The notes under the pieces are model-generated. The model ran no database searches. It worked only from the letters and a program-made list of their open reading frames with translations, and was not told the origin of the DNA. From a virus (taxonomy: Duplodnaviria; Caudoviricetes): a stretch of 64,000 nt of DNA. Position numbers and translations under genes: made by a program. The stretch covers positions 64,001 to 128,000 of IMG/VR virus record IMGVR_UViG_3300028832_000097. One strand, given 5' to 3'. This document shows positions 44,388 through 49,329 of this stretch, piece by piece; within the stretch, counting starts at the first letter, position 1, and every line of letters begins with the position of its first letter.

Positions 44388-44451
44388 AAATAACCTCCAA
44401 TTAGAGTTGATATAATTAGTAAAGGTTAAAATTGGAGTTTTCAAATATAAG

Positions 44452-44522
44452 AAAAGCAAGTGTGCTGGAAGCAGCTTTCACCAATAAGGAGTGCTTCCAG
44501 CGGAATACTCAATCGCACTTGC
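44452..44522 (-). terminator. Structured 3' end/terminator of the tRNA operon
   Basis: GCAAGTG...GCTGGAAGCA...TGCTTCCAGC.CACTTGC-TTTT. Confidence 0.55.
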
Positions 44523-44610
44523 AACGACCGGCTTTCATTTGCAGTTAGCTCGCACCTTACCACTCGACGTTAGTATTTCATTCCGCCTTTGCGCTACGTG
44601 GTATAGGACT

Positions 44611-44695
44611 TGGTGCGGATGACAGGACTTGAACCTGCACGCCTTGCGGCACGAGAACCTAAATCTCGCATGTCTGCGAATTCCATCACATCCGC
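44611..44695 (-). tRNA. tRNA-Leu(UAG)
   Basis: Cloverleaf GCGGATG/CATCCGC-ACCA, anticodon arm CGAGA-TTTAGGT-TCTCG, long variable arm. Confidence 0.95.
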
Positions 44696-44704
44696 GTTTA
44701 AATC

Positions 44705-44950
44705 TGCCTACTCCCCACCGGGTTTGCGACAATGCGTAACCTCCGGTGGCTTTCGGCAAGGGCTCAACCCTTTTTGTCAGAGTTATCAGTCATGTCTCTG
44801 AGTTCCCGATAGCTCTAGACTGTATTTCGCAAGCACGGTGTTGACGATGAAGAGCCCAACCTCTTCTGGCAGGATATCTCACCCTGGAGTTCCCTTTGTC
44901 TCATTTATATACCGCAAGTATAAGGTGGGTGGACTGTTGCAACAGTCCAG
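44705..44950 (-). ncRNA. Unidentified structured RNA
   Basis: GC-rich intergenic stretch with TGCC-GAAAG-CCACCGG...CCGGTGG-GGAGTA-GGCA hairpin and a 20-bp palindrome at 44930-44949. Confidence 0.45.
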
Positions 44951-44957
44951 TGCGGAT

Positions 44958-45052
44958 TGGTACAGGACTACCCTCCCGTTGCAACGATTAACTCCACACG
45001 AACTTGTCTATCGGATTACTCCTGTATCGCTAAGAGTAGAGGTTTGTCCTGT
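44958..45052 (-). ncRNA. Non-canonical CCA-ended tRNA-like RNA
   Basis: ACAGGAC/GTCCTGT-ACCA acceptor stem with three internal hairpins and no D- or T-loop consensus. Confidence 0.6.
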
Positions 45053-45149
45053 TGGTGAAGTAGGCAGGAGTTGAACCTGCAATTCTACAATATGTTTTGA
45101 TCACATATAACGAGACACATCCGGCGTTTCCCTATTTCGCCACTACTTC
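45053..45149 (-). tRNA. Atypical tRNA (Leu-like, probable CAA anticodon) with an insertion before the anticodon arm
   Basis: GAAGTAG/CTACTTC-ACCA, Leu-type D arm, GCAGG-TTCAACT-CCTGC T arm; ATGTG-ATCAAAA-CATAT arm. Confidence 0.65.
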
Positions 45150-45184
45150 ATGTTGATAATAGTACTTAGGTACATAACCAAGGT

Positions 45185-45682
45185 TTACTTCAACCCTAGA
45201 AATATAGGTTCAACCAATTTTCTATATTCGTCTACTCCATGATCTATTTTATCTAAGAGCAACGGCATTGTAGCGTCCTCAATCGCACAACAAATTCTCA
45301 TGAGCAATTTTGCTGCTTCAGGTGTTACCTCAAATTCTGGATAATTACCTTTACCGTCATGATTGAATTTACCTGAACGATTATCCGCTAAGAAGCCATA
45401 CAACTCTTTCACATAATCGCTATTTGTATCACCCATGAAACAAAATAGGTTGTTGTGTAACATCTCCTTACTAGGTTTTTTAGTCTTTGGCTTGAGCGTG
45501 AAATCGTCTGCTGCTTGAATCCACTTTGCTACAGAAGTTATCCACCCATTGACATCATCTGGTCGAATATCTGAATACATGAGAAGTTTGATAATATGTT
45601 CAATGATAACACTAGAGTAAGATCTCATAAGAGATCCTGCTCTGTCTTTGTCGGTAGACATAGCTAATATGTATCGTTTCAT
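45185..45682 (-). CDS. Leader-tagged DUF29-like protein inside the tRNA island
   Basis: MKRYILAMS; IIEHIIKLLMY...NGWITSV. Confidence 0.7.
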   Translation of the reverse strand: MKRYILAMSTDKDRAGSLMRSYSSVIIEHIIKLLMYSDIRPDDVNGWITSVAKWIQAADDFTLKPKTKKPSKEMLHNNLFCFMGDTNSDYVKELYGFLADNRSGKFNHDGKGNYPEFEVTPEAAKLLMRICCAIEDATMPLLLDKIDHGVDEYRKLVEPIFLGLK

Positions 45683-45854
45683 TTTTACATGCCCTCCTTA
45701 TTGGTACTAGATTTTTAAGAGAGAACCTAGCAAACTCCTGCAAGTTATGAAGCAACTACCACCTTGCTACGGCCCATATTATTTATATAGCACTCCAAAC
45801 CTCTTAATGAAGAGTAATCCCGTCAGATTGGTTGCATGGCCATCCGAGTGCTTA

Positions 45855-45930
45855 TGGTGTTCCAGAGGCGACTCGAACGCCCGACCCATTGATTAAAAGT
45901 CAATTGCTCTACCGACTGAGCTACTGGAGC
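45855..45930 (-). tRNA. tRNA-Lys(UUU)
   Basis: ATTGA-CTTTTAA-TCAAT anticodon arm, TTCGAGT T loop, ACCA end; one acceptor-stem mismatch. Confidence 0.93.
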
Positions 45931-46029
45931 ATAAATGCCATTTGTTTTCTTTTCAAAAACTACTGCCGATGGCTCGACGGAGAGTAGGTTTTCATCTCTC
46001 GTGATCTCCGCAAAGATCACCCGCTATCC

Positions 46030-46106
46030 TGGTCTCCTGGACGGGAGTCGAACCCGTAAAACTCGGATTTTAAATCCGATACCTATGCCAATTCGGTTAC
46101 CAGGAG
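46030..46106 (-). tRNA. tRNA with UAA anticodon (Leu) and a short variable loop
   Basis: CTCCTGG/CCAGGAG-ACCA, TCGGA-TTTAAAA-TCCGA, 5-nt variable loop. Confidence 0.9.
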
Positions 46107-46215
46107 ATGTAACTGGCTGTAACAGTAAGGGAGAAAGTAGTCCAGAGAACCCTTGCTACGAATTTCACGCAGATCTTAAGAAAGAAGACACCGTTCATCT
46201 ACAGGAAGAACGATG

Positions 46216-46289
46216 TGGTCGGAGTGACAGGATTTAAACCTGCGCCCTCATGCTCCCAAAGCACGCGCTATCAGCTGCGCCACACCCCG
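46216..46289 (-). tRNA. tRNA-Pro(UGG), degenerate
   Basis: CGGGGTG/CACTCCG-ACCA, TTTGGGA loop; D loop lacks GG, T loop is TTTAAAT, ~2 nt missing between D and anticodon arms. Confidence 0.75.
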
Positions 46290-46293
46290 ATGA

Positions 46294-46447
46294 TTACTAC
46301 CAAATGACTTTGGCCATTTGTAAACTAATTACTCAATCCTGGTTAGGCTCAGTTCAAGGCAGAGCTTCCAATAACGGCCTCACTTGTAATCCTTTAATTG
46401 AGTGATTACCTAACAGTTCACAAATAACCAGAGTCATCTGGTAGTAA
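46294..46447 (-). ncRNA. Long-stem structured RNA with potential pseudoknot
   Basis: 33-bp terminal stem with G-U pairs on the minus strand, an 11-bp inner stem, and bulge GTTAGGT complementary to loop GCCTAAC. Confidence 0.7.
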
Positions 46448-46552
46448 AAATGTCAGCAAACTTTAGAGAACTTTGTACTAGTATTATCATACAAGAGAAA
46501 TGTAAATCTGACATCCAAGTGCTGTTGCTTACTTGGTTTTCTTCTCTTTATG

Positions 46553-46627
46553 TGGTTGACGATGCAGGACTCGAACCTACAATAGTTGAGTCAAAGTCAA
46601 CTGTGATAACCGTTTCACTAATCGTCA
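46553..46627 (-). tRNA. tRNA-Gln(UUG)
   Basis: TGACGAT/ATCGTCA-ACCA, GTTGA-CTTTGAC-TCAAC. Confidence 0.95.
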
Positions 46628-47214: not shown

Positions 47215-48330
47215 TTAAAATAGCTTCTTAACTCTTTTTATCTGTGTATCAGGGTTTAGCCCTTTAACACGATTTACTCTATTATGAACACGCAACCTCA
47301 ATGATTCTGAATCTACATGTAGTAGTTTTGCTGCTGACTCAATGCTTTCATACCTAACACCATCAATCTCGATAGGAATTACTCTAGGATTATTTTCTGA
47401 TCTATTACTATTGAGACCAGTTGCCCATGCATGATTTACATTTTCTTGATTAGTGACCCATTCAAGATTTTCTACTCGATTATCTGTTTTAACTCCATTT
47501 TTATGATTAACCTGAGGTTTATTTTCGGGATTAGGTAGGAATGCCATCGCAACTAACCGATGTAAGAATGCATCAAATCTTGATTGGCTATCACCAGTTA
47601 GTGTTATTCTATGATAACCATCTTGGTCATAATCGGGTTCAAGTACCCTGCCATGAATAGTTATTAAATGATCTCCACGTTGTTCCTTTCGAGGACATGT
47701 GTAAAATCGACCTAGCGAAGATATCATGTACCTACCTTCGTACCCTTCAACGTATTTCCACTCTTCAGTATCTAATGTAGGAGGATGTATACCAAGTTTC
47801 AGGTTATCTGCTTCATCGTTTGACATATCTCCATCAATATGTGTGATAGGCTCATCTATCCACCCTAAAAATGTGCTTGCTACTAGCTCCTCAACCCGGT
47901 ATTCTTTATTATCAAGCATGATCTTGTTACTACAATTTATATTACCTTGCGCAATCTTAAGCAAGCTGTCTTCGGCACAAGATTTGATTCTTCCTAAATT
48001 AGATACGCTATAATGTTTGAAAATCGGTAACCAAACTTCTCCAGGTAATGATTGTATTTGAGATTCACAGGTTAAATTAGATACAGCACAATTGAACCTA
48101 TCACCATCAACATGATGTAGTTTAATCAATTTTGGATCATATGTTGGATCTACAAATAATTGATATATCAGTACATCAAGTGTAAATTCTCTGTTACTAC
48201 CATCTTTACGCAAACTAACTTTACCTGAAGAAGAGACTTTCAGCGGTGTATTCTTTCGCAGATTAATTATCTGCCCACAATCTTGAGCAAGATACAATCC
48301 TTCATATCCTAGTACAGGTAACTCAATCAT
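47215..48330 (-). CDS. HNH homing endonuclease with three tandem NUMOD4-HNH units
   Basis: GYEGLY..HVDGDRFN; YSVSNLGRI..HIDGDMSN; GYEGRYMISSLGR..HRLVA..VNHKNGVKTDNRVENLEW. Confidence 0.9.
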   Translation of the reverse strand: MIELPVLGYEGLYLAQDCGQIINLRKNTPLKVSSSGKVSLRKDGSNREFTLDVLIYQLFVDPTYDPKLIKLHHVDGDRFNCAVSNLTCESQIQSLPGEVWLPIFKHYSVSNLGRIKSCAEDSLLKIAQGNINCSNKIMLDNKEYRVEELVASTFLGWIDEPITHIDGDMSNDEADNLKLGIHPPTLDTEEWKYVEGYEGRYMISSLGRFYTCPRKEQRGDHLITIHGRVLEPDYDQDGYHRITLTGDSQSRFDAFLHRLVAMAFLPNPENKPQVNHKNGVKTDNRVENLEWVTNQENVNHAWATGLNSNRSENNPRVIPIEIDGVRYESIESAAKLLHVDSESLRLRVHNRVNRVKGLNPDTQIKRVKKLF

Positions 48331-48336
48331 ACTAGA

Positions 48337-49329
48337 TTAAAACAACCTCTTAGTACGCCTTATCTTATTAGGATCATATGCATATTTTGTGCCAATCAGC
48401 TTCTGAATACTGTGTATATTGAAAGCAACTCGTGCTGAAGAATCATTTCTAATCTGATCCATTGTTAAATTACACGCTGCAACTTCTTGCTCAAGAATCT
48501 TAACATTATGCTCATCTGCAAGTGAAAAGAAACTCATACTTGACTTATTCCTAGTTGTCCTATCACGATCTGTCACAGAAATTACACCAAATGTAGGTGA
48601 AAGAATTTTACAGTATGCAGCAATGTGTCTGTGACTTATTGAATCCGCGGAATAACAAGGAAGCTTGCTTAACCCTTCTAACGAAGTATATCCATACAAA
48701 TGTGTTTTTACATTAGGATTAGACGAAGCATGGATCAAATCTGCACATTCTTTTAGGTAGATGTCCTTCATCGCTACGCTGGCGTCATTCGCCGGCGACA
48801 ACCCTATGTAATCTAAGGGTTCCCCATTTTCATCTGTCCATTCTAACATATCTTTCAACACCTGCATAGACTCTCCATAATGGAATACAGGCATAACTTT
48901 ATGTGGACTCTTAACTTTTGTACGCATATACAAAAAGTTTTCCCAAGATTTCTTTGCAGATTCTACATAATCTTCTGCAGATTTGGGCTGTCCAAACTTA
49001 CCTGGAATAGTATCAAGTTGTGCGCACACATCAATATCATCGTCAATACTGTTTATATAATCAATGTATGCATCTTCCCAGTCTCTGAAGGTTGGCTGTT
49101 CAGTGCTCTTCCATCCGGGTAGTTTAGCGTTACCAGTATGTATACTAAACGCACCAGAATCAATAAACAACCATCTGCAAAATCCTTCATGTTTCCACTT
49201 AATAGTTTTAGTAATTGCACTGCGATCTAACTGAGTTATGAGTATATCTAGAGGTTCAAAATCTGGGATACCTACTAAATAATCATGCATTTGCTGTGTT
49301 AATGACCCTGACATTACATATTTTTCCAA
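48337..49329 (-). CDS. TGT-fold (DpdA-like) guanine transglycosylase
   Basis: FIDSGAFS, QLDTIPG, MPVFHYGE, YIGL, THLYG, YSADS motifs. Confidence 0.65.
   Translation of the reverse strand: MEKYVMSGSLTQQMHDYLVGIPDFEPLDILITQLDRSAITKTIKWKHEGFCRWLFIDSGAFSIHTGNAKLPGWKSTEQPTFRDWEDAYIDYINSIDDDIDVCAQLDTIPGKFGQPKSAEDYVESAKKSWENFLYMRTKVKSPHKVMPVFHYGESMQVLKDMLEWTDENGEPLDYIGLSPANDASVAMKDIYLKECADLIHASSNPNVKTHLYGYTSLEGLSKLPCYSADSISHRHIAAYCKILSPTFGVISVTDRDRTTRNKSSMSFFSLADEHNVKILEQEVAACNLTMDQIRNDSSARVAFNIHSIQKLIGTKYAYDPNKIRRTKRLF

Follow-up and report, generated by a model that had tools for sequence, protein, structure and literature searches.

The minus-strand element at 44958..45052 of the window is a conserved phage RNA gene that copies the acceptor end of a tRNA and takes up tRNA positions in tRNA arrays without being a tRNA. 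It is probably an autonomous small RNA gene of ~92-95 nt whose product uses the tRNA maturation pathway. The window (64,000 nt) covers bases 64001-128000 of an IMG/VR phage record that is complete, 171 kb long and 37% G+C, and a single minus-strand cluster at 44611-46627 holds all six tRNA genes of that record. Homologues occur in seven distinct lineages: the window (to which contig L092 is identical), L093/L095, L101, L102, L106, L112 and L116. The placement is plainest in L112, where tRNA-Met directly precedes the element and tRNA-Thr follows after a 4-nt trailer. An earlier note on this DNA, which had read the element as a tRNA mimic that is not itself a tRNA, is borne out to that extent. 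The coordinates of the features are given in Table 1.

Table 1. Features of the element, the unit upstream of it and further candidate units. Locations refer to the window unless a contig is named; RNA position p of the element corresponds to window position 45053 - p.
Feature	RNA positions	Location	Strand	Remarks
Small-RNA gene (the element)		44958..45052	(-)	95 nt; from the sequence
Helix A, 5' strand, acceptor-like	1-7	45046..45052	(-)	Perfect 7 bp with 44962-44968
Helix A, 3' strand	85-91	44962..44968	(-)	Pairs with helix A 5' strand
Discriminator A and encoded CCA		44958..44961	(-)	A invariant in 7/7 lineages, CCA in 4/7; from the alignments
Helix B, 5' strand	11-15	45038..45042	(-)	100% of cells paired; 3x3 purine-rich internal loop between A and B
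Helix B, 3' strand	77-81	44972..44976	(-)	Pairs with 11-15
Helix C, 5' strand, base of long arm	16-20	45033..45037	(-)	MFE fold and RNAalifold consensus
Helix C, 3' strand	58-62	44991..44995	(-)	Pairs with 45033..45037
Helix D, 5' strand	23-26	45027..45030	(-)	Pairs with 44998-45001
Helix D, 3' strand	52-55	44998..45001	(-)	Pairs with 45027..45030
Hairpin E	29-41	45012..45024	(-)	GUAA (GNRA-type) tetraloop at 45016-45019, invariant in 7/7
Hairpin F	67-76	44977..44986	(-)	Invariant self-complementary UGCA loop at 44980-44983
Upstream unit, aberrant tRNA-like RNA		45053..45149	(-)	97 nt; ARAGORN 'tRNA-???', Rfam tRNA 38.3 bits; member of the 'tRNA-???' family
'tRNA-???' family member		L087 2067-2184		
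'tRNA-???' family member		L101 438-555		
'tRNA-???' family member		L106 1028-1143	(-)	
'tRNA-???' family member		L102 5055-5204		
'tRNA-???' family member		L093 1974-2060		
Candidate unit		46439-46533	(-)	95 nt, 6-bp stem, starts after CCA
Candidate unit		46311-46426	(-)	116 nt, 7-bp stem

Both ends of the element are laid out as in a tRNA gene. As the earlier note had seen, it begins at the first base after the CCA (45055..45053) of the aberrant tRNA-like unit upstream, with zero spacer and on the same strand, and its termini pair without mismatch over 7 bp, with A and CCA beyond the helix. It starts with A or U, where a tRNA usually has G. A lack of conserved stem and CCA in relatives would, according to the note, have counted against it, and the comparison does not refute it. 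The stem is conserved, with compensatory changes; the discriminator (A92) is invariant in the seven lineages, and four of them encode the CCA, which is replaced by CUA, AUA or AAA in the other three, and by their sequences these variants look like CCA-less tRNA genes. The phage genome has about one perfect 7-bp stem with NCCA, at a spacing of 60-140 nt, per 21 kb per strand, and ~16 of them lie outside tRNAs in 342 kb (both strands). Stem and NCCA alone are a far looser criterion than a start exactly behind a CCA: the 2.4-kb array holds two units that start in this way and close with stem + NCCA, versus 0.03 in shuffled sequences.

The likeness to tRNA stops at this end. The element has the 7-bp acceptor helix and discriminator (with CCA) of a tRNA, and none of the seven lineages has a T-arm or T-loop, a D-arm or a 7-nt anticodon loop with U33, in agreement with the missing T and D loops pointed out in the note. 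ARAGORN, which the note had predicted would miss the gene, called no tRNA in any of the seven homologues in standard, 70%-threshold, intron or mitochondrial mode. Rfam searches at gathering thresholds and to E = 10 (1-kb search) gave no tRNA match on the element and none on the homologues (membership of RF00005 takes at least 29 bits). Tests for tmRNA (RF00023 / RF04321), which call for a tRNA-like domain that has a T-arm and G3-U70 and for a tag reading frame, were likewise negative: ARAGORN found none, the best overlapping Rfam match was tmRNA_permuted at 11.2 bits versus a gathering threshold of 47, and the tmRNA-diagnostic pair 3-70 is A-U in the element, not G-U. No Rfam match to GOLLD or ROOL appeared at E up to 10, and the element measures 95 nt against 500-800 nt for those RNAs. 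Y RNA/YrlA gave no Rfam match, and no TROVE domain (Ro60) was found in the phage. The element has the anatomy of a minihelix-type RNase P substrate, with a terminal helix of at least 7 bp, a 3' NCCA and a 5' base that follows the upstream CCA. It also shows that tRNA detectors miss whole gene classes sitting in tRNA arrays.

The unit directly upstream, to which ARAGORN assigns a 4-nt anticodon (45149..45053), belongs to a conserved family of its own, with homologues in five other lineages. Members of this 'tRNA-???' family are 87-150 nt long and have an identical acceptor stem throughout, a class-II-like D-arm and a canonical T-arm whose stem sequence depends on the lineage. A hypervariable insert separates the D-arm from the T-arm, and they are without a usable anticodon arm.

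The minimum-free-energy (MFE) fold of the element has -29.1 kcal/mol, which by itself is weak evidence because the z-score (-1.8) is only modest. The structure rests on comparison. RNAalifold, applied to six lineages aligned with MAFFT only, and pair counts on a model-based alignment of seven gave the same structure. In this consensus, helix A is followed by a 3x3 purine-rich internal loop, helix B and a three-way junction with two branches. The long arm stacks C (16-20/58-62), D (23-26/52-55) and E (31-33/38-40), capped by the GUAA tetraloop, and the short branch is hairpin F (67-69/74-76) with its UGCA loop. Across the seven lineages, 97.4% of the cells are paired, and seven pairs have changed on both sides, at least one per helix (five helices), versus 0-2 such changes in partner-slid controls; the covariation that the note had suggested looking for is present. 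Compensatory changes from C-G to U-A are seen in helix A (2-90 and 7-85) and in helix B (12-80). Pair 20-58 of helix C occurs as U-G, U-A and C-G; pair 26-52 of helix D is A-U in four lineages and G-C in three; and pair 69-74 of hairpin F occurs as U-A, A-U and G-U. L116 has replaced three of the four pairs of helix D with pairing kept, and has G-C instead of A-U at 33-38, the pair that closes the GUAA loop. The U15-G77 pair of helix B is an invariant wobble, valid on the minus (tRNA) strand only. The conserved G-U wobbles as a whole are compatible with that strand alone.

About 40 interior positions are invariant, including both tetraloops. The variable parts are the inter-helix internal loop and the strand at 42-51, a single strand of 10-11 nt. 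Several invariant segments carry no covariation signal in the seven sequences, and the single-sequence MFE folds of four homologues disagree in the interior. The earlier note had drawn a cloverleaf with an extended stem and three hairpins. The extended stem exists as the 5-bp helix B and one of the hairpins as F; the other two (16-21/30-35 and 38-41/57-60) are possible pairings, and the seven lineages favour another interior. With the cloverleaf interior, 91% of interior cells are paired and L116 has a C-A mismatch, and a rod-like pairing of 22-27 with 65-70 is mismatched in two lineages. Repeated motifs leave alternative interior pairings possible. Nevertheless, the comparison makes the three-way junction the best-supported fold, and the element is better described by that term than as a cloverleaf. 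A hammerhead-like box was rejected, being present in one lineage only.

Protein searches that started from both ORFs beside the non-coding block, neither of which has a Pfam family, led to closer contigs, and among them nhmmer located the element in L092, L093/L095 and L101. An invariant 19-mer and a degenerate pattern added L102, L106 and L112, and the covariance model R1, which scores 113.7 bits on the element itself, added L116, the most divergent member. A pattern scan of IMG/VR with the exact stem returned 28 matches, all of them unrelated and due to chance. In the phage GenBank collection, only tRNA-Leu was matched within the 881-nt query region, and 18 related phages reached via the neighbouring TGT-like gene had no homologue by BLAST or covariance model. 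The ORF165 protein had no relatives in the IMG/VR or JGI metagenome scans; a word-index protein search with ORF165 did find relatives, and the closest contig, L087, has a different unit at the element's place. All seven lineages come from rumen/gut-type assemblies. A single "bacterial" match lies on a 17-kb contig of a Clostridia metagenome-assembled genome (MAG) that carries an endolysin, and the element is absent from 66 other genomes of that MAG's order. The distribution is phage-only, and the hosts of these rumen/gut phages are probably Clostridia.

In all seven lineages, the element's first base directly follows a CCA. The units in front of it are of six different kinds: an aberrant tRNA, tRNA-Met, another undetected tRNA-like RNA and three other structured units. 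Its downstream neighbours also vary, being a structured block, an ORF (L093) or a tRNA (L112 and L106). Differing neighbours together with constant abutment to a CCA indicate an autonomous, shuffled module that resembles a tRNA gene in array architecture.

Two non-coding blocks flanking tRNA-Leu(UAG), 44696-44957 (-) and 44440-44610 (-), are conserved modules too and stand in another order in other contigs; the latter directly follows the element in L101 and L102. A perfect hairpin at 44930-44949 keeps its UGCA loop in L087 with two compensatory pairs. The 12 nt after the CCA of tRNA-Leu(UAG) (44599-44610 (-)) equal the last 12 nt of the element (44958-44969 (-)) with one change, and the 3' acceptor strand of tRNA-Leu recurs in the 8 nt that follow the element. 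By their sequence, these repeats at the two CCA ends may have been left behind when modules were shuffled at CCA junctions. The stretch 47215-49329 (-), just upstream of the tRNA array, holds genes for an HNH homing endonuclease and a queuine tRNA-ribosyltransferase-like protein; the TGT-like gene and the tRNAs are ~43 kb apart in the nearest relative.

Several other explanations account for parts of these observations. The element might be pure punctuation, that is, a spacer that shows an acceptor-like helix so that RNase P frees the upstream RNA with an exact CCA, the excised piece being waste. Zero-nucleotide abutment to the upstream CCA is indeed its most constant feature (7/7 lineages), and the simple 22-nt hairpins of stem + NCCA found in L087 resemble minimal versions of such a spacer. 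However, a spacer needs helix A alone, yet helices C to F covary, and ~40 interior positions, the two tetraloops among them, are invariant though the neighbouring units differ, which makes this explanation unlikely. We give still less weight to the element being one domain of a larger ornate RNA of the GOLLD/ROOL type, ~600 nt long around tRNA-Leu(UAG). Large RNAs of this type are known beside phage tRNAs, the blocks next to it, 44696-44957 and 44440-44610, likewise show conservation and structure, and a hairpin with a UGCA loop is common to the element and the next block. This explanation is weakened by the modular contexts, since elsewhere the element stands apart from those blocks, next to an ORF or a tRNA and behind six different units, and by the negative Rfam searches, so we regard it as improbable.

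The position in a tRNA array beside an aberrant tRNA, and the resemblance of the last 8 nt of helix A to the 3' strand of the T-stem of the nearby tRNA-Leu(UAG), would suit a tRNA pseudogene in decay whose acceptor stem has survived by chance. Decay does not explain why all five helices are kept via compensatory changes in seven lineages, and a residual tRNA score is found in no lineage; the covariation refutes a pseudogene for practical purposes. Least credible of all is a functional, if bizarre, tRNA used for decoding on the ribosome. It would account for the acceptor helix, discriminator A, CCA and tRNA-slot position, but no lineage has a 7-nt anticodon loop, T-loop or D-loop, and the candidate loops are 4 nt long or variable in sequence and length.

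For the reading that we prefer, an autonomous small RNA gene, the path to the mature RNA would run as follows. We infer that the element is co-transcribed with the phage tRNA operon and that tRNA-processing enzymes could excise it because its ends pair like an acceptor stem. The terminal stem would offer RNase P a minihelix-type substrate, and a single cut after the upstream CCA would generate the 3' end of the upstream RNA and the 5' end of the element together. The 3' end would be given by the encoded CCA or by RNase Z-type cleavage after the discriminator followed by CCA addition. Genes for a CCA-adding enzyme and an RNA ligase were not found in the phage, nor were genes for a reverse transcriptase and Ro60. 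Forms lacking an encoded CCA would depend on a host enzyme to add it because the phage is without its own. The acceptor/T stack of a tRNA has 12 bp, and the element has 7 bp, a 3x3 loop and 5 bp, with no T-loop elbow. With this longer stem and no elbow, it is uncertain how efficiently RNase P, RNase Z and the CCA-adding enzyme would act on it.

The interior, with its ~40 invariant positions and both tetraloops, is too conserved for a spacer, which points to a specific partner; judging by this conservation, the three-way-junction body most likely binds a protein or another RNA. The family combines a well-supported fold with an invariant core that points to such a partner, and follows a clear construction rule: the unit opens at +1 behind a CCA, and an acceptor-like helix closes it. 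Most likely, the RNA would act as a stable mimic of a tRNA end and engage a factor that reads the acceptor helix or CCA end, and host toxins or enzymes acting on tRNA 3' ends would be candidates. Some defence toxins are known to examine the acceptor stem and to modify the CCA end (10.1101/2024.07.05.602228, PMC9712102, PMC10435456). Given such toxins, a role as acceptor-end mimic is plausible by analogy and, if true, would extend the conflict of phage and host over tRNAs by an RNA-based layer. The roles that the earlier note had offered as examples, a decoy for anticodon nucleases or a T-box or RelA ligand, do not fit because each needs an anticodon-like arm, and the element has the conserved loops GUAA and UGCA and the variable strand of 10-11 nt.

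The nearest precedent is the pair RNAC/RNAD (species 1 and 2 RNAs) of phage T4, which come from the T4 tRNA region and whose function is still unknown (PMC3014915, PMC9697503). Like these small stable non-tRNA RNAs at the end of a phage tRNA cluster, the element belongs to a phage tRNA operon, shares the strand of the tRNAs and abuts one of them. The genomic logic is the same without homology: model R1, run with filters off on the T4 tRNA region, scored at most 15 bits, inside a CDS elsewhere, and matched neither rnaC nor rnaD. In addition, T4 RNAC has a canonical T-arm and the element has none, there is no sequence or structure relation to either RNA, and the host range differs, the element being found in rumen/gut phages. 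The family is hence a second, unrelated example of a small non-tRNA RNA from a phage tRNA operon after RNAC/RNAD.

Other known RNAs share single traits with the element. Borrowing of the tRNA pathway is exemplified by mascRNA and menRNA, non-decoding RNAs that RNase P releases from MALAT1 and MEN-beta and that are completed via RNase Z and CCA addition (PMC11693755, PMC8457004). These are eukaryotic, true tRNA-like cloverleaves with an elbow, whereas the element is tRNA-like at the acceptor end only. The tRNA-like domain of tmRNA and the tRNA-like structures of plant viruses are also acceptor-end mimics with (N)CCA that are read by tRNA enzymes. However, tmRNA has a T-arm and G3-U70, and the element has neither; the plant-virus structures, unlike the element, have a pseudoknotted acceptor at the 3' end of a genome. 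GOLLD and ROOL are structured non-coding RNAs beside phage tRNAs as well, but at ~600-800 nt they have other architectures than this 95-nt autonomous module. YrlA, a bacterial Y RNA that is sometimes phage-borne, is a tRNA-mimicking non-coding RNA with a terminal stem (PMC4201824). It shares tRNA mimicry and terminal-stem closure with the element; in contrast, YrlA mimics the T/D elbow and binds Ro60 via its stem, and the element is without an elbow mimic in a phage without a Ro60 gene.

A wider reading, possible but doubtful in our judgement, is that phages carry an undescribed class of "tRNA-slot" RNAs, of which the element is the best-defined member. Such RNAs would be acceptor- or CCA-end mimics, modular and arranged head to tail, each closed by an acceptor-like helix with NCCA and excised by the tRNA machinery, and they would share arrays with scrambled-anticodon tRNAs and with a tmRNA reduced to its tRNA-like domain. 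These mimics could soak up host toxins that inspect and modify tRNA 3' ends (toxSAS/CapRel and MenT types); alternatively, they could sequester enzymes of tRNA maturation or decay, or carry an amino acid for non-ribosomal use.

Arrays of this kind hold further units, and those that begin behind a CCA and close with stem + NCCA are far more frequent than in shuffled sequences. In the window, the spacer between tRNA-Gln and tRNA-Pro contains two candidate units closing with stem + NCCA (Table 1). Head-to-tail chains of 3-5 units occur at L101 438-1028, at L093 713-1054 and in L106 (-) upstream of 1238. Each chain unit starts directly after the previous CCA and is closed by a terminal stem, and in one unit of 141-146 nt the terminal stem shows compensatory changes between L093 and L106. 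RNAs missed by ARAGORN were also seen in the tRNA clusters of relatives, at L081 3816-3919 (-), L083 4812-4942, L079 5386-5463 and L112 13337-13426; all have an acceptor stem and NCCA, and some combine a canonical T-arm with an odd body. An 81-nt RNA at L112 12917-12997 matches the Rfam tmRNA model end to end (71.9 bits) with the whole mRNA-like part absent, and by sequence it is a tmRNA cut down to its tRNA-like domain, with G3-U70 and CCA. Finally, L086 2486-2556 (-), from relative G009, encodes an ARAGORN tRNA with anticodon UUA, which reads the UAA stop codon and hints at stop-codon suppression or recoding in that lineage.
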